A stretch of DNA of 64,000 nt from sequence record NC_054903.1; one strand, given 5' to 3'. Both the position numbers and the translations under genes were made by a program. Below the pieces are notes generated by a model. That model was not told the DNA's origin. It saw only the letters and a program-made list of their open reading frames with translations, and did not search any database. The stretch comes from Enterobacteria phage GiZh. Position 1 is the stretch's first letter. The number at the start of each line of letters is the position of its first letter. Below, piece after piece: positions 4,794-42,968 of the stretch.

Positions 4794-7700
4794 ATGGCTA
4801 CTTTAAAACAAATACAATTTAAAAGAAGCAAAACCGCAGGTGCACGTCCTGCTGCTTCAGTATTAGCCGAAGGTGAATTGGCTATAAACTTAAAAGATAG
4901 AACAATTTTTACTAAAGATGATTCAGGAAATATCATCGATTTAAGCATTTCTGCTGGTGGTAATATCAGTGGTAATATTACTCAAACTGGTGATTATACA
5001 CAGACTGGAAAATTTAATTTAATTGGTCCGCAAATTGTAGAAAGCGGTGGATATATTGAGTTTAATTATCGTACTACTGGAAGTGGGGCTTGGTCCGGTC
5101 AACATACTGCGAAAGCTCCAATTTTTGTAGATTTAAGCTCAGCTACTTCCACATCTGAATATAATCCTATAATTAAACAGCGCTTTAAAGATGGAACTTT
5201 TTCATTAGGTACTTTAGTTTCTGAAGGTTCGTTGAAGATTCATTATATCAATGAATCTGGCGATTCGAAATATTGGACGTTTCGACGTGACGGCGGATTT
5301 ACTGTTGACGGTGGAGGTTTAGGAGTATCAGGAGGTAGTATAACTACATCTGGAAATATTGCAGCTCTCGGAAATATTACTTCGCCTCAGATTAATACTA
5401 AAAATATTATTTTAGATACAAAAGCATTTGGACAATACGATTCGCAGTCATTAGTTCAATATGTTTATCCTGGAACCGGTGAAGAAAACGGTATAAACTA
5501 TCTTCGTAAAGTTCGAGCTAAATCAGGCGGAACTATTTACCATGAAATCGCTTCAGCTCAAACCGGTAAAAATGATGAAATTTCTTGGTGGACCGGAAAT
5601 ACACTTACTACTAAATTAATGGGTCTTCGTAATGATGGCGCAATGGTATTACGTCGTTCACTTGCTATTGGCACAATTACCACTGACGAAAATACTAACA
5701 ACTATGGTTCTCCTACTCCAATGGGAGAAAGATATATTGCTTTGGGCGATGCTGCCACTGGTTTAAAATACATTAAGCAGGGCGTTTATGATTTAGTAGG
5801 TAATTGGAATTCTGTTGCGTCTATTACTCCTGATAGTTTCCGTAGTACTCGTAAAGCGATATTTGGACGTTCAGAAGACCAAGGCGGAACCTGGACAATG
5901 CCTGGAACGAACGCTGCCTTTTTATCAGTTCAAACACAGGCTGATGAAAACACTGCTGGAGACGGCCAGACGCATATTGGCTATAACTCAGGCGGAAAAA
6001 TGAACCACTATTTCCGTGGTAAAGGCAAAACTAATATTAATACTCAGGAAGGTATGGAAGTTAATCCGGGTATTTTGAAATTGGTAACTGGCTCTAATAA
6101 TGTAATGTTTTATGCTGATGGCGGTATTACATCTGTTAAGCAGCTTTCAATATATAATGGCATATATTTAGCAGCTAATAATTCTACTGCTGGGCTAACA
6201 TTCGCTCCAACTACTACAATTGATGGCACTAAGCAAATTTTGTGGGAAGGCGGTACTCGTGCTGGTCAGAATAAAAGCTATGTAACTGTTAAAGCATGGG
6301 GTAATTCATTTAACGCATCTGGCGATCGTAATCGTGAAACGGTTTTTGAAGTAGCTGATGGACAAGGATATTATTTTTATTCACAGCGTGTGGCTCCAAG
6401 TGGCTCTGAAACTACTGGGCCTGTTGTAACCCAGTTCAATGGACAAGTTAATGCTAGAGGAAGTATTATTACTGACGGAAGTTTTAAAGTTAATGGATTA
6501 AGCACTTTAGTCGGTAATGTTACCATGTCTAATGGTTTGTTTGTCCAAGGTGGTTCTTCTATTACTGGACAAGTAAAAATTGGTGGAACTGCTGATGCAT
6601 TAAGAATTTGGAATGCCGAATACGGTGCTATTTTCCGTCGCTCAGAAACAGCATTACATATTATCCCGACTCCTAAAGATGCCGGTGAAAGTGGTGGAAT
6701 AAGTAATCTCCGCCCACTTAGTATTAGTCTTAATAATGGTATGGTACAAATGCGCCATTCTGTTACGTTAGGCGATGATGGCGCTGGCGGTAATATGATT
6801 ACTGTGGACAACGATACCAAACTTGTTGTTGTTACTAGTCATAGTCGTATTTCTCCTAATTACCGTATGCAGGTAGGACAAGCAGCTTATATTGATGCTG
6901 AATGTACTGACACCGTTCGCCCGGCTGGCGCAGGGTCTTTTGCTTCACAAAATAATGAAAACGTTCGTGCTCCGTTCTATATGAATATTAATCGCACAGA
7001 TACAAGTACTTACGTTCCTATTTTAAAACAACGTTATGTTCAAGGAAATAGCTGTTATTCTTTAGGTACTTTAATAAATGGCGGTAACTTCAGAGTTCAT
7101 TATCATGAAGGTGGAGACGGAAGTTCAACAGGCGCAATTATAAAAGATTTAGGCTGGGAATTTACACGTTCTGGTGATTTTATATCTCCTAAGCGCATTT
7201 CTGCTGGGGGTTCAGTTTATTTAGGTACAGACGGTAACATTACTGGTGGTTCTGGTAATTTTGCCAACTTAAATAGTACAATTGAATCACTTAAAACTGA
7301 TATTGTTTCAAGTTATCCTATTGGAGCTCCGATTCCTTGGCCTACTGATACACCTCCTGAAGGTTATGCCATAATGGAAGGTCAAACATTTGATGTTGGC
7401 TTGTATCCTAAGTTAGCTGCGGTGTATCCTTCCGGCTCTCTGCCTGATATGCGCGGGCAAACTATCAAGGGTAAACCATCTGGGCGTGCTGTATTAAGTA
7501 CAGAAGCAGACGGTGTTAAGTCACATAGTCATAGTGCAAGTGCATCAAGCACGGATTTGGGTACTAAGACCACATCAAGCTTTGACTATGGTACTAAGAC
7601 GACAAGTAGTTTCGACTATGGTACTAAGACCAGTAATAATACTGGTGCTCATACGCATAGTTTGAGCGGTTCCACAAACACCGCCGGTGCGCACAGCCAC

Positions 7701-17540: not shown

Positions 17541-19718
17541 TTAGGCCGCAAGGGCCTTCATAGTTTTAGCGATTTGGGAAACTTCATCATCACTTAAAGA
17601 GTTGCGATAACCGATGAAGTCGGAAACAATACGGAATTTCTTGGTAAACTCAGCAACCATTTTATCACTATTTTTTGAAGCATTACGTGATAATTCATCA
17701 AAGAGATTAGTTACTGTCCAGATATCATGACCGATGGTATCTTTTCCACCATTGAAATACACACCGCGTAATGAACTAACCATATTACCAAGTCGTGTAT
17801 ATTCTTCAGAAACTTCATCTGTACTGAAGTACTTCATCATAAAATCTAGTTCAGGATACTTGATAATTTTATCAATATATCGTTGAGCTGAACTTGAATA
17901 ACCTACATACTTATCATAATCTACATCATCAAAAGCATCTACATATAAATCACGCAAAGCTTCAAAAATACATTGGCACTGACCGAGTTCTTTTACCTTT
18001 TTCTGTAAAAGCGGACGAATAACATAAAATTCATTAATGCCAATAAGATTAGCCATACGAATCAAAATATTCATAGATGGATGACAAAGTGATGTAGTAC
18101 CATCCATAGAGAAAATATCAGAACGATGCATATACGCTACATAACCAGTAATTTCATCTGCTTCTGACGTAAGTGTAAATAATTCCTCTTTTTCCCAACG
18201 CCCATCTTTAATTTCAAACTTAAATGCTGTAGCAGCTTTAGGACGAGGAGCTTTACTTTTAACTACCTTTGGAATATAGCTTTTAACTAAAGCTTCAATT
18301 TCTGACAAATAATGAATGTTAACTTCATCACTTTCAAACATTGCCATAATATCAGGTAGTAAATCAATCTGCGATTCTACTTCCGGATTAATAAACAGAA
18401 GACGCTCATTGTGATGAATATTTAAAGTGTTATTAAATTCACTATCATCTAGCGCATGTGCTAATCCACGGACAATATTAACACGATTTTTAATATTATC
18501 AATAACGATATTAATTTTTGTTGTATTAATACCAAACAGACGATAACTTGACGCAACGGCTGATGTTTCATGACTTTGCTTAATGCGCTTCAGTCGAGGG
18601 TCAAGATTTACTTCATACACAACTCCTGCATTACATAACTTACTGTCAGGTTCAAACATGCTCTGCATTTTCTTATATGACAGATTTTTAGTCGTGAATT
18701 TGACTGAATTACTAATCATATAATCTCGAGCAGAATACCCCATCTTCATCAATTCACGATATGTGTGACGAGGAGATGTAGATTCTTTAAATCGTTTTAC
18801 ATCTTCATTAAATGCTTTCTCACTAAGCTCTTTAACTCGTTCAATGATATTTTTACGAGTGCGATCATCTAGTGAAAGAGCCTCGCGAGATGGAGCAATA
18901 TCAAGTGAACCCATTGGAAACTTAATGTAATTCACTTCATTGCGAATGCTTAGCCAGTTACGGTCTCTAATAACACCATCGATAGGATAAACAATACCGC
19001 CATAGATAGCATATAATCCACCACGATCAGGCCAGTATCTTTCTGGATTTACACCATAATAATCATCAAAATCAGGAAAATAATCAATTTCGCGGTCAAG
19101 ACCATTAATGATAGCCAAATCTTTGAACGGTCGCATGATATAAGAAACTTCATAAGCAAAGTTTCTAAAGTCTTTTTCTTCAACTGGAACTACGATTTCA
19201 ATACCAGTTTTATCATCTGGACCCATTTCTTTTACGAATGTAGGTTTAATCTGTGGGCCATCACCATCCATGTAAGCTACATAACCACGAATTTCACCTT
19301 TATGATACGAAGTAATACTAAACGTATCAGTATAACTAAACGGAGATTTAGAACCTAAACCAAATCCGCCAATAAAGTCATTAGATTCAGCCTTAGATGA
19401 ACTGAAGTATGAATTATACAGCCCAGGAGAATTATCATCACCCTGAATATCAAAATCACTCATACCCGGACCAAAATCTCGACAAACAAATCGTGGATCT
19501 AATCGTCCTGGAACTTGAATGATAAATTTTTCAGGATTTCCATTAAGTGCATGAGCATCAATCATGTTAGTAATCAATTCACGGACTACTGCGCGAATCT
19601 TGTTTGTATACAAATCAGATGACAGAATTTTAAATACTTTAGGATTTGCTGCGATGCTAAATGCTTTTGATTTAGAACCATTGCCAAGAATTGTTTCTTT
19701 TTCAGTGGTGATAATCAT
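17541..19718 (-). CDS. rIIA: rIIA
   Basis: 725 aa, same as T4 rIIA; GHKL-ATPase-like N-terminus. Confidence 0.9.
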
Positions 19719-19728
19719 AATTTCCTCA

Positions 19729-20001
19729 TTAATTCATATTACGTTTAATAACTTCAGCAACTTCTAGTAGTTCATCTTTAGTTGCGGTGTCGGATTGAAT
19801 TTTATCTCTAATATCTTTAAAGCGGTTTTTAAATTCTTCGGCTTCTCCCATATCGAAAAAGCGTTGAATGATTCTATATTCTCGATGAACTGCTTTATCA
19901 AAAAGTTCTAAATTTACTCTATATGATTTCATTTCAATATCCTCATTTGCCCAATTAATTATACCACATCCTTGTGTAAAGTAAACTACTGGCTCATCCA
20001 T
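19729..20001 (-). CDS. hypothetical protein (90 aa), rIIA.1-like
   Basis: ORF between gene 39 and rIIA. Confidence 0.55.
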
Positions 20002-21806
20002 TCTTTACGAAGGTCAGCATTATCTCCCATGAGCATTTCAAAAAGCTCTTTCCAATTCTCAGGAAGTTTAACAACATCATATACTGGATTTTGAATCATC
20101 TCACGATATTCAGATTTTTCCAAAGAGCCAAGTCCCTTAATATAACGGATGCTATGTTTAGGTAGAGCATCTTTGGCACTCTCATATTCAGCGACTGTAT
20201 AAAACCATTCTTGTTTTTTACCGACCTGAGCGATGATTACAGGAGTTTTGACAAAGCGAATTCGTCCTTGCTCAAACAATTCTGGCCAATTACTAAAAAA
20301 TCCGAGCAGAGAAGGATAAATGCTTCCTAGACCATCATGGTCAGCATCAGTCATAATAGCAATATTGCGATAATTCAAGTTTTCAGCTTTTTCACCAAGA
20401 ACTAGACCAGTGATTGCGCAAATATCAAATAGTTCTTTGTTTTTAAGCATATCGGCATATGACATACCCCAGCTATTAAGAACTTTACCGCGCAATGGAT
20501 AACCACCATGAAGTTCTTTATCGCGAACATCAATAAGATATCCGATAGCTGAATCACCCTCAGTCAAGAACAATGTAGTGTCAGCATCTTTACCGCAAAG
20601 ATTCGCTTTAATATGTTTATGAACCTTAGCTTTAGAAGCCTTTTTAGCTGCTTTAGTTTCTGCTGCTTTTTCTGCCGCCAATTTACGAGCCAAAGCAGCT
20701 TCAATAATCGGCATCAGAATTGCTTCATTATTTAGAATAGCGCGTGAAATCTTTTTAGCGTCAAGTTGAATATGACTACGAATTTCGCCAAATGGAGAAG
20801 TCAAACGCTCTTTAGTTTGAGAATCAAATCGCATGTTTTTCATATCACGAACAAACATAACGATAGTCAAACATTCTTTAACGCGTGCTTTAGTTACATC
20901 AATTTTGAACTTACGTTTGATTTGTGGAATAAGGTCTTCACAAATATCATCCATAACACAGTCAATGTGATGGCCACCATTCTTAGTATGAATGTTATTG
21001 ACGTATGTTAATTGACGAAAACCATCCGGTGAACGACCAACCGCAATAGAACAATTTTCTTGTTCTTGAACGATAGCATGTTCATCATATTGGCGTGCGT
21101 ATTTCTTAAAATTACCCTGAACCTTTTTACCATTAAAGGTAAATTGAATATCAGGATAAACAACAGCAAGTGTTTGGAGACGATCTAGTGTAATGTCAAG
21201 ATAAACTTGGGACAGCTCATTAGTTTCAAATGACATAAAATCAGGAATGAAAGTAACACGGGTTCCTTTCCATTTTCCAGGAATATCTTCCCATGATTTA
21301 TTTTCCATGCCGTTTGAACAACGAACTACAATATTATTTTGACCATCACCAGTTTCACCGACAAACATCACAGAAAAAATGTTTGTCAAACTAGAACCAA
21401 CACCATTCATACCACCGGTGACGCGTTCTTTATCATCACCGAAGTTACCACCTGCTTTTGGAATAGTCCACGCAGCAACAGGACCAGGAATTTCTTCACC
21501 GGTAGGTGTTTTAACCATCGCCTGTGGAATACCACGACCGTTATCTTCAACTGTTACTTGATTATTTTTAATAGTAACATTAATTTTATTCGCGAATTTA
21601 AACTTAGTACGAATACCTTCATCTACTGAGTTATCGATAATTTCATCAATAAGCTTAACAAGACCAGGTACATACTGAACACTTTCCCATTTACCAAACA
21701 GAAAGCGCTCATGCATTTCATTAGCTGAAGAGCCAATGTACATGCCGCTACGCTTTTTGATATGTTCAATATCGCTCAGAATTTTAATTTCATTCTTAAT
21801 CATCAC
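19986..21806 (-). CDS. 39: DNA topoisomerase II large (ATPase, GyrB-like) subunit, uninterrupted 39/60 form
   Basis: 606 aa single ORF; GHKL ATPase and TOPRIM-like motifs; T4 splits this into 39 + 60 with a translational bypass. Confidence 0.9.
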   Translation of the reverse strand: MMIKNEIKILSDIEHIKKRSGMYIGSSANEMHERFLFGKWESVQYVPGLVKLIDEIIDNSVDEGIRTKFKFANKINVTIKNNQVTVEDNGRGIPQAMVKTPTGEEIPGPVAAWTIPKAGGNFGDDKERVTGGMNGVGSSLTNIFSVMFVGETGDGQNNIVVRCSNGMENKSWEDIPGKWKGTRVTFIPDFMSFETNELSQVYLDITLDRLQTLAVVYPDIQFTFNGKKVQGNFKKYARQYDEHAIVQEQENCSIAVGRSPDGFRQLTYVNNIHTKNGGHHIDCVMDDICEDLIPQIKRKFKIDVTKARVKECLTIVMFVRDMKNMRFDSQTKERLTSPFGEIRSHIQLDAKKISRAILNNEAILMPIIEAALARKLAAEKAAETKAAKKASKAKVHKHIKANLCGKDADTTLFLTEGDSAIGYLIDVRDKELHGGYPLRGKVLNSWGMSYADMLKNKELFDICAITGLVLGEKAENLNYRNIAIMTDADHDGLGSIYPSLLGFFSNWPELFEQGRIRFVKTPVIIAQVGKKQEWFYTVAEYESAKDALPKHSIRYIKGLGSLEKSEYREMIQNPVYDVVKLPENWKELFEMLMGDNADLRKEWMSQ

Positions 21807-21830: not shown

Positions 21831-21858
21831 ATTATACTCCGGTAATCATAAAGCTAAA
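21831..21858 (-). promoter_or_regulatory. putative MotA-dependent middle promoter (AGCTTTA box, 12-nt spacer, TATAAT) upstream of gene 39
   Basis: - strand reads ttAGCTTTA-N12-TATAAT; same arrangement recurs at 54435..54459. Confidence 0.4.
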
Positions 21859-21872
21859 GGCCCGAAGGCCTT

Positions 21873-22142
21873 TTATTTAAAACGAATAGTTGAATCCTTA
21901 AAGAACAGCCCAGAACATACTGTTCCTTCTACTTTCTGCCCGGTAGGTCCAATAGCACGAAATCCAGTATGTTGGAAATCATTTTCAGAACAACCGAACC
22001 AGTTATATCCAGTGATTTCAATATTAGTAAAACCGCTTGAAGATAAAACTTTGGTTGCATTATCAGCATCAGTACATCCTACTAAAGACACTGTTAATAC
22101 TAATGCTGCAATAGAACGATTAATATATTTCATAATTTTCAC
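21873..22142 (-). CDS. small lipoprotein (89 aa)
   Basis: signal peptide ending in lipobox LVGC. Confidence 0.6.
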   Translation of the reverse strand: MKIMKYINRSIAALVLTVSLVGCTDADNATKVLSSSGFTNIEITGYNWFGCSENDFQHTGFRAIGPTGQKVEGTVCSGLFFKDSTIRFK

Positions 22143-22510
22143 TTAAATTTAATGGCTTGAAGAAGACTAATAATTCTCAAGCGACTTCTTTCATCTTTAA
22201 CTGTAAAAGAAAGAGGGTCACCAGATTTCATAGTAATAGTACATTCAAAATCAAAATCTTCGGAAACTTCTTTGAAGAAGTCAAATTCTTCATCATAAAT
22301 TAGAACATTACTCTGACAACTATGAAGAATTTTTCCATCATTTCCAGATGCTGTACTAATCATTGTAACATTATGACCTTTCATATCTTCAATGATAAAT
22401 TCACTAGTCAATATTACAGCATTAATAGAACTATTCCTATTACTAGCAGAAAGTAGATATTTCTGTTCTTCACCTTCACGAATGCAATATTTCTTACCGA
22501 TTTTAAACAT
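22139..22510 (-). CDS. hypothetical protein (123 aa)
   Basis: ORF, ATGA coupling. Confidence 0.55.
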   Translation of the reverse strand: MFKIGKKYCIREGEEQKYLLSASNRNSSINAVILTSEFIIEDMKGHNVTMISTASGNDGKILHSCQSNVLIYDEEFDFFKEVSEDFDFECTITMKSGDPLSFTVKDERSRLRIISLLQAIKFK

Positions 22511-22512
22511 AA

Positions 22513-22689
22513 TTATCCTTTAAGTAAGTCGTAAAATCCGCCATTCACATGCTTAGGAGCAGAAGGCCGACGAGTAGACAAACGATGACATTTAGGGCAA
22601 ACATCATTTTCTCGTTCAGAAATCTTTTTAATTTTTTCATATTCATGCCCGCAATCTTCGGATTGGCATTTATAATCATACATTGGCAT
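22513..22689 (-). CDS. small zinc-ribbon protein (58 aa; CxxC...CxxC)
   Basis: MPMYDYKCQSEDCGHEY...CPKCH; below ORF-track cut-off. Confidence 0.45.
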   Translation of the reverse strand: MPMYDYKCQSEDCGHEYEKIKKISERENDVCPKCHRLSTRRPSAPKHVNGGFYDLLKG

Positions 22690-22691
22690 AA

Positions 22692-23117
22692 TTATTCCTT
22701 AAAGTGTGCTTTCAGCATTTGATACAAGGACCATGCCTGTTCATTATTTTCAATAGTAACTTTCATGACAGGAAATTCTGTGAAATCTTCTATTTGTTCT
22801 TGCTCTTTCTCTTCCTGCTCTTGCTCTTCAGCTGCCTGATATGGATTTTCCACTTCATCAAAGAACTCGGCTTCGTTAGTAGAGAGCCAGATAAAGTTTT
22901 CGTCAAGGATATCACCATGTGTTGCATATCCAATTGTGCCAGTAAATGACATAATTTTAGTAGGACGACCAAGATGGTCAACATCTAAAATTTTAAAAGG
23001 ATGCATACCTAAACGGCGTGCATAGATTCCGTTATCAGTATGATCTTTAATAAAATTTTCTTGAGCTTGTTTATTTTTAAATTGATACCATTTATTAACT
23101 TCAAATCTAATAGCCAT
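22692..23117 (-). CDS. goF: hypothetical acidic protein (141 aa), goF-like by position and size
   Basis: 141 aa ORF adjacent to cef; acidic [11 protein letters not shown] stretch. Confidence 0.4.
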
Positions 23118-23332
23118 TAATAAATTTCCTTCCAGTAAGTTGTGCCATCTTCAGTAATTTCACGAAATACACCGTAAATTGGTTGTTTATCACCAACCTT
23201 TTCATACACATAAACCGAAGTCAAGTGAGTAAACTTAACGGTATGTTCCTTTTGAACCACTACCAAATCTGGATCAAATAATACATCTTCAAATTCGTCA
23301 TTAGTGCAATTCTGAACAATTTTACGTTTCAT
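23117..23332 (-). CDS. cef: Cef-like protein (tRNA processing modifier)
   Basis: 71 aa, same length as T4 Cef; position. Confidence 0.55.
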
Positions 23333-23725: not shown

Positions 23726-24145
23726 TTATGCTAAAGCTGCTTCGCACCATTTTTTAATTTGGAATTCAGGAACTACCATGAACTGGCCTGCAAAAACAAT
23801 ATTGTAGAGCTTGACACCATCTTCTACCCAACGGTCCGAAATAAAACCAGCGACTTGATTCGTTGTCCATGGAGTTCCATCTGTTGCCGCCGCAATTGTG
23901 AATTTATGGTCTTTTACAACTAAAACTGAAGAACAAAGTTTCCATTTAAATGCGCGTTCTTCTGGCTCAATGAACTGACTTGAGACATAACCAATGTTAC
24001 CATCAGCGTCACGAACTTTAACCTCGTTACGACCAAAAACTGGATCACTTACAGAAAGAACTTCAACCAGCTTTCCTGCAACTTTAGAACGAGAAGCAAC
24101 GGATACATATACGTAATCACCAGTAGAGAGATTTACAATATTCAT
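23726..24145 (-). CDS. paralog-family protein A (139 aa; C-terminal DRWVEDGVKLYNIVF motif)
   Basis: shares N- and C-terminal similarity with the next ORF. Confidence 0.6.
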   Translation of the reverse strand: MNIVNLSTGDYVYVSVASRSKVAGKLVEVLSVSDPVFGRNEVKVRDADGNIGYVSSQFIEPEERAFKWKLCSSVLVVKDHKFTIAAATDGTPWTTNQVAGFISDRWVEDGVKLYNIVFAGQFMVVPEFQIKKWCEAALA

Positions 24146-24154
24146 AATAATTCC

Positions 24155-24628
24155 TTAAGCTTTACGAGGAGAAGCATAACGAGTGATTTCAGATTCTTCA
24201 ACAACCCGGAAGTCACCTAAGAATACGATATTGTAGAGCTTTTCACCATCTTCAACCCATTGGTCTGTGATGAAGCCACACATCCTATCAGTTTTACTTG
24301 GACCAGCGAAATCATCAATATAATCGAATTCTTCATCAGTTACAAATTCAACGCCTTTACACAACGCCCATTTAAATTGTGTATTAGACTCAGTGGATTC
24401 AACTTCTTCAACAGAAGCAAAATGAGAGCTAACACGAGTTTCCAGAAATTTAGGACTTACGTAAGCGTACTGAGTTTCAGTTTTTCCAGAACTAGGAATG
24501 ATTCGAACTTTAACTTCTTTAACACGACCAGTACCATTAGTACGAAGTCCTACCACTTCAACTAGACGACCTGCAGCTTTAGAACGAGATGCAGACGATA
24601 CACGCTTAATTTCACCGATAGTAATCAT
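24155..24628 (-). CDS. paralog-family protein B (157 aa)
   Basis: start set at ATG 24628 (ORF-track 24673 lacks RBS); SASRSKAAGRLVEV and DQWVEDGEKLYNIVF motifs. Confidence 0.6.
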   Translation of the reverse strand: MITIGEIKRVSSASRSKAAGRLVEVVGLRTNGTGRVKEVKVRIIPSSGKTETQYAYVSPKFLETRVSSHFASVEEVESTESNTQFKWALCKGVEFVTDEEFDYIDDFAGPSKTDRMCGFITDQWVEDGEKLYNIVFLGDFRVVEESEITRYASPRKA

Positions 24629-24700
24629 AATTTTTCTCTCTTTGTTGTTAAGATTTATACTCCGCAGGACCATTATACTCTGGTCCCAAGAGTTTGTAAA

Positions 24701-25138
24701 CTAGCTTACACGAACATTAATCACTGCGCTGCGAGGAACTACAGAGTACTCTCCAGCATGAACTACGTTCAGAAGTTCAACACCATCTTCAATCCACTGA
24801 TCAGTCACCCATCCACCCACAGGATTCGCGAATGGACGACGAATATAAACTGCCTTACACAGCAGATCAGTTGGATCTTCAGGTTTTTCAATTTCTGTCA
24901 ATAGACTAAAATCTTTTTCATAAATAATAAGCGGTGATACCATTCCATAATAGTTTCTAATTTCAATATACATCATACCGATAAGAATTCCGCTATTAAC
25001 ACTAATAACAGTAAAAGGATATCCGCCAGTTAAACCAAGAAGTTCACAAAACTTATTATGAGCTGTATTAGACAGTACCGAAAAATTCTTAATTTCATCA
25101 AATTTTTTCAATTGATAAACAGCATTATTTTTAATCAT
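24701..25138 (-). CDS. paralog-family protein C (145 aa; shares only the C-terminal motif)
   Basis: C-terminal TDQWIEDGVELLNVVHAG. Confidence 0.55.
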   Translation of the reverse strand: MIKNNAVYQLKKFDEIKNFSVLSNTAHNKFCELLGLTGGYPFTVISVNSGILIGMMYIEIRNYYGMVSPLIIYEKDFSLLTEIEKPEDPTDLLCKAVYIRRPFANPVGGWVTDQWIEDGVELLNVVHAGEYSVVPRSAVINVRVS

Positions 25139-36706: not shown

Positions 36707-37000
36707 TTATTCGCCTGTGATTTCGGTTACGATATTTTTGTTATTAAAGTTTTTATCGCAATACAGAACATAATTATACTGCATTACACCACCAGACTTA
36801 AGCTGTTTTTGTACTTCAGCTTTCATTTCAGGACGATCGCGCTCAACGATATTCATAATATCCGCTTCAATTTGAGTTTCAACTTCAGTCTGATCTGCAG
36901 TCATAGACCATTCACACAAATCTTTATCATAGCCTGCCATAGCAGGCTGAGCAGCACAAGAAGCCAAAGTAAAAATTGTAGCAAAAATAAATTTTTTCAT
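36707..37000 (-). CDS. sp: Spackle (Sp), periplasmic superinfection-exclusion / lysozyme-inhibitor protein
   Basis: 97 aa with signal peptide; same length and position as T4 sp. Confidence 0.8.
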   Translation of the reverse strand: MKKFIFATIFTLASCAAQPAMAGYDKDLCEWSMTADQTEVETQIEADIMNIVERDRPEMKAEVQKQLKSGGVMQYNYVLYCDKNFNNKNIVTEITGE

Positions 37001-42593: not shown

Positions 42594-42968
42594 TCAATTT
42601 TTTTTTACACATGAATTATAAGAATTCACTACATACTCCATCGGAGCATTTTTACCAGTACGCCATTGGTAATTATTAGCCCAATTAGCCCAAATTTCGG
42701 CGCAGTAGTTTTCAATTTTTTCTTCGCGTGTAATTACATCAGAATTACGATATGCTTGAGCAGATTCATCTGGACGAATAGCTTCGTCAAAATTCGCCTG
42801 CATTTGTTCTACTGTTTGCTTTGGAGCTTCTTTATAACACTTGACATTAGGATTATAAAATTTGCTTGAACAGTTTACAATTTTTCCTACACCAGACTGA
42901 TTTACTACCGGTCCTTGAGCTACACAACCAGTAAGACCTAATGCAATAACCAAAATAGCGATTTTCAT
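42594..42968 (-). CDS. lipoprotein (124 aa)
   Basis: signal peptide with lipobox LTGC. Confidence 0.55.
   Translation of the reverse strand: MKIAILVIALGLTGCVAQGPVVNQSGVGKIVNCSSKFYNPNVKCYKEAPKQTVEQMQANFDEAIRPDESAQAYRNSDVITREEKIENYCAEIWANWANNYQWRTGKNAPMEYVVNSYNSCVKKN

Follow-up and report, generated by a model that had tools for sequence, protein, structure and literature searches.

Gene 39.1 of a T-even phage: a predicted outer-membrane lipoprotein of a large phage-borne family, with a tentative receptor-independent role at the cell envelope

What do the small open reading frames beside topoisomerase gene 39 encode, and does the lipoprotein among them block a phage receptor? The question arises from a 64,000-nucleotide stretch of the Enterobacteria phage GiZh genome (NC_054903.1), the whole of which is referred to here as the window. 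The first-pass annotation described three small ORFs at this locus, one for a lipoprotein and one for a zinc ribbon, and compared the lipoprotein with receptor-blocking exclusion proteins of other phages. Judged by its sequence, the window comes from a Tequatrovirus. Over the 1.2 kb around the locus its identity is 99.8% to Shigella phage ESh18, about 98.7% to RB18 and, when other Tequatrovirus genomes are included, 98-99.8% overall, and 531 phage records match this region around 39.1, the 123-aa ORF and 39.2. The genes of the neighbourhood are as follows:

17541-19718, minus strand: rIIA
19729-20001, minus strand: rIIA.1
19986-21806, minus strand: gene 39, an unsplit topoisomerase gene
21873-22133, minus strand: gene 39.1, encoding a predicted 86-aa prolipoprotein (ORF and phrog_902 match, E = 6.5e-37)
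22139-22510, minus strand: 123-aa ORF, the RB18ORF005 or RB69ORF005c-like orthologue (phrog_622 match)
22513-22689, minus strand: gene 39.2, encoding a 58-aa zinc ribbon of the FmdB family (PF09723, TIGR02605)
22692-23117, minus strand: goF (phrog_622 match, E = 1.1e-40)
23117-23332, minus strand: cef (Pfam T4_Cef, E = 5.5e-35)

The three ORFs were found where they had been placed, with the reported lengths of 89, 123 and 58 aa and all on the minus strand. Their description as lying "downstream of gene 39" has to be turned round, because gene 39 is also on the minus strand and the three ORFs are therefore transcriptionally upstream of it. The minus-strand run goF, cef, 39.2, 123-aa ORF and 39.1 is arranged head-to-tail and tightly packed, with Shine-Dalgarno-like sequences and with each stop 2-5 nt from the following ATG. 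In the proposed scheme, 39.1, the 123-aa ORF and 39.2 would be co-transcribed with goF and cef upstream of gene 39. The same three ORFs are annotated in RB18, T6 and T2 as 39.1, ORF005 (RB69ORF005c-like) and 39.2. They are real, already catalogued, conserved early genes of T-even phages, and the locus is largely ordinary, a set of annotated orthologues of the T-even genes 39.1, ORF005 and 39.2.

The interval between 39.1 and gene 39 contains several elements as well:

21856-21873, minus strand: stem-loop AAAGGCC-UUCG-GGCCUUU, its first base being the final one of the 39.1 stop codon
21831-21856, minus strand: candidate gene 39 promoter, read from the sequence
21849-21856, minus strand: MotA-box-like TAGCTTTA, with a 12-nt spacer to the -10 element
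21831-21836, minus strand: TATAAT, the -10 element

RNA folding gives the stem-loop a 7-bp stem and a UUCG loop, and its 61-nt context is unexceptional against shuffles (z = -1.35). A terminator scan did not list it, because its T run is interrupted. From its position in the sequence we infer that it probably marks where the goF-cef-39.2-ORF123-39.1 transcript ends, or else stabilises that transcript. The octamer TAGCTTTA is one that we take to resemble the MotA box of the T4 middle-promoter consensus, and from its combination with TATAAT we infer a candidate middle-type promoter for gene 39, which a promoter scan with a model devoid of MotA boxes did not flag.

Gene 39.2 is readily classified. 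Its product scores 45.7 bits against Pfam PF09723 Zn_ribbon_8 (cut-off 34.4, E = 6.7e-12) and 44.9 bits against TIGR02605 (cut-off 31.3, E = 8.7e-12), so that the zinc ribbon proposed at first holds, whereas the proposed CxxC...CxxC spacing gives way to Cx4C...Cx2C, with the two knuckles C8-x4-C13 and C31-x2-C34. All four cysteines are invariant in T2, T6 and T4. Compared with the window protein, that of T2 shows no difference and that of T6 shows 79% identity, and the phage-specific C-terminal tail, PKHVNGGFYDLLKG, is conserved in both. Searches by tblastn found gp39.2 in 853 phage records, nearly all full-length and uninterrupted. The label "transcriptional regulator" that gp39.2 carries is evidently inherited from the FmdB family name, and the product would be a cytoplasmic FmdB-type mini-protein with a predicted zinc ribbon. 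In T4 the RNA of 39.2 was classed as early, and its protein was given no class (PMC9697503, supplementary files 4 and 6).

The 123-aa ORF matches phrog_622 over residues 1-123 (profile positions 3-131 of 132, E = 2.8e-29), the same PHROG to which the window's goF belongs. A pairwise BLASTP comparison of the ORF with this goF was not significant; the ORF is thus read, from the shared PHROG profile alone, as a distant paralogue within the goF family. It is present in 592 phage records by tblastn, again nearly always full-length and uninterrupted, and is absent from both versions of T4 (the reference and MT984581), where the junction is clean and the 39.2 stop is directly followed by the TTATG of 39.1.

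The more demanding member of the locus is 39.1, for which the following parts can be delimited:

21873-22142, minus strand: 39.1 read from an alternative GTG start at 22142, giving 89 aa
22077-22133, minus strand: predicted signal peptide, codons 1-19
22074-22076, minus strand: codon of Cys20 in the lipobox L17-V18-G19-C20
21876-22076, minus strand: predicted mature domain, 67 aa
21873-21875, minus strand: stop codon

The reported length of 89 aa depends on the GTG start. The ATG at 22133, giving 86 aa (MKYINRS...), is the start found in RB18, T2, T6 and re-sequenced T4 and in most homologues. The lipoprotein assignment stands; the length does not. The N-terminus of gp39.1 carries K2 and R6, followed by the hydrophobic segment IAALVLTVS and then by L-V-G-C20. 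It passes a PROSITE PS51257-type lipoprotein rule, which asks for a positively charged n-region, a hydrophobic h-region and [LVI][ASTVI][GAS]C with the cysteine at position 15-35. By itself the lipobox pattern is weak evidence. In the window the rule is passed by five ORFs, where shuffled windows average about 1.45 lipobox-like patterns each, and this background is what speaks for an alternative in which the lipobox arose by chance and the three ORFs are non-functional. Against it stands conservation: the ORF at full length, its lipobox and its paired cysteines recur in phage genomes numbering in the hundreds and in over 2,000 clusters, and gp39.1 protein is detected in T4 infection. We regard the chance or non-gene reading as refuted by the conservation data, its residual probability being negligible.

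It is this conservation across homologues that makes the lipobox call well supported. The rule was passed by 52 of 53 homologue clusters, and an alignment of 197 family representatives has the lipobox-column cysteine in 180; 15 of the 17 representatives without it have a hydrophobic N-terminal anchor directly before the domain. The signal peptide and LVGC lipobox proposed for the window protein are thereby upheld, and gp39.1 is well supported as a predicted Sec-exported prolipoprotein that would undergo lipidation and cleavage by signal peptidase II. Residue +2 is threonine in 164 of the 197 representatives, serine in 18 and aspartate in none, and it is threonine in the window protein. Under the Lol rule of E. 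coli, aspartate at +2 leads to retention in the inner membrane; other hosts may differ. Threonine at +2, with aspartate never seen in the family, therefore predicts sorting to the outer membrane on E. coli rules, in agreement with the "outer-membrane-directed" protein of the first-pass annotation.

The mature domain also bears marks of a periplasmic protein. Among the 197 representatives, C48 and C73 occur together in 183, are both missing in 8 and occur singly in 6 (Fisher p = 5e-10). C74 and C81 form another such pair, complete in 21, missing in 176 and never represented by one cysteine alone. Pairs that are gained and lost together suggest disulfides, and hence a periplasmic location; a putative C48-C73 disulfide stapling the mature domain fits these counts. 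An AlphaFold2 model built on a 30-sequence alignment has a mean pLDDT of 78, low over the signal peptide and with block means mostly of 78-94 over the mature part. It places a helix over the signal peptide, a second helix at residues 23-32 and then four antiparallel strands. In the model, then, the mature fold is one helix packed on a four-stranded antiparallel sheet, which is a generic arrangement, and with a helix from residue 23 the folded domain would begin about 3 residues past the lipidated cysteine. Structure searches with gp39.1 returned solely family members or generic folds.

How widely is this small protein distributed? Its sole PHROG match is phrog_902, functionally unannotated, which covers residues 3-89 of the 89-aa form at the E value given above. 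The mature domain had no match in Pfam, NCBIfam, PADLOC or PDB sequences, and when 45 family members were scanned against Pfam no match was at domain level, the hits being limited to one to the lipoprotein attachment site and a weak one to UBA_4. When 1.84 billion representative proteins were searched with the family profile, clusters being taken at 50% identity, 2,212 clusters passed E <= 1e-3 and 1,101 passed E <= 1e-10; their members are nearly all 80-120 aa long. By tblastn, gp39.1 was found in 1,068 of 50,697 phage records, nearly all matches being full-length and uninterrupted; they come from Straboviridae of many enterobacterial hosts and from phages of Aeromonas, Stenotrophomonas, Serratia and Rhizobium. 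The BFVD holds relatives in jumbo phages of Agrobacterium, Klebsiella and Edwardsiella, and one metagenomic relative lies behind the Q antiterminator of an N15-like protelomerase phage. On the other hand, when the genomes of 185,579 bacterial and archaeal species were scanned with a degenerate DNA motif, just 2 true family matches emerged, the first on a contig of an Acutalibacteraceae MAG and the second at a contig end in Flagellimonas, which indicates that the family is essentially phage-borne. As these searches delimit it, the family is very large, almost exclusively phage-borne and not described in Pfam. Entries of the phrog_902 type bear the label "Lipoprotein" in UniProt and GenBank, for example in JS98 and Klebsiella phage KP185.

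In all contexts inspected, the neighbours of family members are early or nucleotide-metabolism genes and never tail-fibre genes. About 8% of the family are non-lipoproteins, with a transmembrane anchor or a signal that may be cleaved; the N-terminus of one resembles that of a prepilin. The existence of such members implies that the outer membrane is not obligatory and that a target of the family need not be an outer-membrane component.

The T4 reference sequence (NC_000866 / AF158101) departs from the gene structure described above. It is annotated with a signal-less gp39.1 of 65 aa and a gp39.2 of 45 aa, and it agrees with the old entries X06220 and M89919; its upstream reading frame still encodes MKYISRSIAALVLAVSLINSTDAD, followed by a stop. 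At least 11 other T4 genome records, which include T4T, KJ477684-6, MT984581, OL964735 and OZ209023, carry a version that is 2 nt shorter and 93% identical over a 171-nt stretch. MT984581, the one T4 record translated in full, has an intact 86-aa gp39.1 with the lipobox LIGC and a 58-aa gp39.2, from which the reference differs by two single-base insertions and a clustered ATAGGATGT to ATTAATAGT change. A loss of 39.1 in T4 through frameshift and lipobox mutation was considered and rejected, since at least 11 independent T4 genomes differ from the reference and the gene is intact in MT984581. The simplest explanation of the reference differences is that they are errors, or that the clone first sequenced carried a lesion of its own. 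This apparent error, which truncates both 39.1 and 39.2, has spread into annotation and into the guides designed for a genome-wide knock-down screen of T4, and the family may have gone unnoticed because the reference mis-encodes 39.1 as a signal-less 65-aa ORF.

Time-course omics of T4 infection classed 39.1 as "early-RNA_late-Protein", with the protein detected (PMC9697503, supplementary files 4 and 6). A CRISPRi-ART screen of T4 called both genes "Not Fit", scoring 39.1 at -0.45 and 39.2 at 0.08, and their knock-down caused no fitness defect (PMC11879866, supplementary file 15). The 39.1 guides of that screen cover reference coordinates 5565-5615, where they address the annotated internal start and contain reference-specific bases (PMC11879866), and because they were built on an erroneous start the result for 39.1 is weak either way. 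A literature search on gp39.1, T-even lipoproteins and FmdB proteins in phages found no functional study. The protein is a conserved, expressed and functionally unstudied member of a large phage-only family.

Does gp39.1 block a receptor, as was first suggested? In this alternative it would be an analogue of T5 Llp or of phi80/N15 Cor and would inactivate the phage's own receptor from the periplasm, so that neither superinfection nor loss of progeny on debris would occur. Its general features are compatible with such a role, for it is small, early-transcribed and predicted to be an outer-membrane lipoprotein with a putative disulfide and a very short tether. Llp itself is a small, outer-membrane-anchored periplasmic lipoprotein with cysteines in its mature part, the same general kind of molecule, and it binds the periplasmic side of FhuA and refolds the extracellular loops of that receptor (PMC9586334). 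But the likeness ends at "small phage lipoprotein". When a 45-sequence gp39.1 profile was aligned to T5 Llp with hhalign, 18 columns were matched, all within the signal peptide and lipobox (gp39.1 residues 4-22 against Llp residues 1-18), and there was no sequence or profile similarity beyond them. Pfam and PHROG scans gave phrog_902 only and nothing annotated as Llp, as exclusion or as Cor, the lipoprotein type of phi80, N15 and HK022, a comparison made at the level of library annotations; the fold hits in BFVD were all family members. The gene context differs too, 39.1 not being adjacent to the genes for gp37 or gp38 whereas llp abuts oad.

Receptor usage adds a further argument. The mature gp39.1 sequence is identical in T2, differs by one residue in T6 and is invariant in RB18, and the whole protein is 97.7% identical to that of FL08. 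T6 uses Tsx as its receptor and FL08 requires OmpA, and the Gp38 adhesins switch among Tsx, OmpA, OmpF and OmpC (PMC12032242). A blocker fitted to the phage's own receptor would be expected to change along with it; as gp39.1 is near-constant across phages with differing receptors, such a blocker is unlikely, and the occurrence of the family in phages of Stenotrophomonas, Rhizobium, Agrobacterium and Aeromonas and in Bacteroidota contexts speaks against an Llp or Cor analogue as well. We consider such an analogue improbable. The earlier reading of gp39.1 is therefore partly supported: the type of molecule and its likely location hold, and the receptor-blocker analogy does not.

Our best guess, with a probability of roughly 0.35-0.4, is that gp39.1 has a receptor-independent role in envelope protection or exclusion. 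In this scheme the prolipoprotein would be lipidated and processed by Lgt, LspA and Lnt and then moved by the Lol system, and its domain would rest flat against the inner leaflet of the outer membrane, on the periplasmic side. There this small domain may bind or inhibit a conserved target near the envelope. Building up as infection proceeds, it would protect the infected cell or the progeny, broadly as superinfection-exclusion or envelope-protection factors do, and without masking the phage's own variable outer-membrane-protein receptor. Several observations favour this receptor-independent role: the early expression and accumulation through infection, the confinement of the family to phages, the strong conservation whatever the host receptor, and the transmembrane-anchored or possibly soluble variants, which point to a periplasmic target. 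Somewhat more speculatively, gp39.1 may found a large phage-specific family of membrane-tethered periplasmic mini-domains that serve as receptor-independent envelope effectors. Such mini-domains may block a conserved genome-entry step of competing phages, or alternatively may neutralise a conserved host envelope factor.

Two other roles deserve consideration. The protein could act in the periplasm to inhibit some enzyme or stress sensor of the host envelope, such as a protease, peptidoglycan hydrolase, phospholipase or envelope-stress lipoprotein, and would thereby keep the envelope intact or silent until programmed lysis; we hold this to be rather unlikely, though a good deal less so than a part in lysis itself. 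As a component of the lysis machinery, gp39.1 would be an o-spanin-like lipoprotein or a lysis-timing factor, a proposal that draws on its small size, its predicted outer-membrane location and the late-accumulating class of the T4 protein. Its RNA, by contrast, is early, and its gene sits among early genes and far from the lysis genes, with ORF005, 39.2, goF, cef and gene 39 as neighbours and no adjacent or embedded i-spanin gene. O-spanins are typically short and largely unstructured, whereas the mature part of gp39.1 is modelled as a compact, putatively disulfide-stapled fold, and the sole o-spanin match in BFVD was non-significant (E = 1.3). A lysis function is accordingly very improbable, and the receptor-independent envelope role is the reading that we carry forward, the remaining probability going to roles other than those named here. 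The value of the locus lies in a gp39.1 family that is large and little noticed, and in the apparent T4 reference error, rather than in any peculiarity of the window.

Compared with known systems, T5 Llp resembles gp39.1 in that both are small phage lipoproteins with cysteines in the mature part, gp39.1 being predicted to be periplasmic as Llp is. The two differ in that llp adjoins the receptor-binding gene oad, whereas 39.1 sits between ORF005/39.2 and gene 39, and in that gp39.1 does not vary with receptor usage. A second point of comparison is Spackle (Sp, gp61.3), an exported periplasmic exclusion protein of T4, the same phage. The window contains its gene:

36707-37000: Spackle gene (phrog_1586, E = 3.9e-47)

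By their PHROG assignments alone (phrog_1586 against phrog_902), Spackle and gp39.1 have no family relationship. Signal peptidase I releases Spackle as a soluble protein; gp39.1, by contrast, is predicted to keep a lipid anchor and, in the model, has an alpha+beta fold.

The neighbours have their own counterparts. The gp39.2 protein exceeds both curated cut-offs of the FmdB / Zn_ribbon_8 family and has its four cysteines in two knuckles, but departs from the family in the Cx4C of the first knuckle and in its phage-specific tail. The 123-aa ORF shares both its PHROG (phrog_622) and its gene cluster with T4 GoF (comC-alpha). As for gp39.1 itself, its orthologues in ESh18, T2, T6, RB18 and re-sequenced T4 are 98-100% identical to the window protein, and T4-type 39.1 occupies the same place between 39.2/ORF005 and gene 39 as it does in the window, with no material difference.

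In the region of the lipoprotein gene 39.1 and the zinc-ribbon gene 39.2, the T4 reference sequence (NC_000866) and re-sequenced T4 (MT984581) provide different versions of the same locus, with reference positions 5570-5740 compared with MT984581 positions 2050-2340 as the counterpart of window 22060-22560. At least 11 re-sequenced T4 genomes disagree with NC_000866 over 171 nt (93% identity), while the old entries X06220 and M89919 side with the reference. The differences in NC_000866 comprise clustered substitutions together with two 1-nt insertions, and the RefSeq annotation therefore gives only 65 aa, lacking a signal, for gp39.1 and 45 aa for gp39.2. In MT984581 the lipoprotein is 86 aa long and the zinc ribbon 58 aa.

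This discrepancy bears on functional data for T4 39.1, which was scored as "Not Fit" by CRISPRi-ART with guides at reference coordinates 5565-5615, corresponding to approximately window 22050-22100 (PMC11879866, including its supplementary files 15 and 25). Because these guides were placed at the mis-annotated internal start and include reference-specific bases, the "Not Fit" result may reflect poor knock-down instead of dispensability of the gene.

Between 39.1 and 39.2 lies a further ORF:
22139-22510, 123-aa ORF of the goF family.
It is present in GiZh, RB18 and T6 as well as in T2, where it is annotated at about 105 aa, and absent from T4. It behaves as a clean presence/absence cassette flanked by two ...TTATG junctions.

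Besides gp39.1, the ORFs of the window picked up by the PROSITE-type lipobox rule include two more:
42594-42968, minus strand, 124-aa ORF with a lipobox, beginning MKIAILVIALGLTGC, then VAQG.
36707-37000, minus strand, Spackle (phrog_1586, E 3.9e-47), the superinfection-exclusion protein that acts in the periplasm.
The former matches phrog_1754, a PHROG of unknown function (E 3e-43). What makes Spackle pass the simple rule is a Cys within the signal peptide, and its flag is probably a false positive.

Within the gp39.1 family itself, two members are unusual. One is located directly after the Q antiterminator on a metagenomic contig of an N15-like protelomerase phage (L010, 8001-8303). The other, P0165, has in place of the lipobox a fused prepilin-like N-terminus (GFTLVEMLIVL) plus a Cys-rich segment, likewise N-terminal.

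Reading of the translations in the motB region revealed:
23726-25138, minus strand, three ORFs in a row (139, 172 and 145 aa).
All three have the C-terminal motif ...WVEDG.KLYN(I/V)V..G.F.VV... in common, which suggests that they form a small paralogous family.

Our own reading of the sequence on the other side of 39.1 yielded candidate signals upstream of the topoisomerase gene 39:
21831-21873, minus strand, hairpin GGCC-UUCG-GGCC, then promoter-like elements.
19986-21806, minus strand, gene 39, one ORF; its annotated ATG gives about 605 aa, a GTG start 606.
The end of the 39.1 stop codon falls within the hairpin, which is followed on its 3' side by TAGCTTTA, 12 nt and TATAAT, an arrangement that looks like a MotA-dependent middle promoter of gene 39. 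Neither the hairpin nor this promoter candidate was flagged by the automatic terminator/promoter scan of the window. Gene 39 of GiZh is unsplit, as it is in T2, T6 and RB18, without the mobA/gene 60 split of T4.
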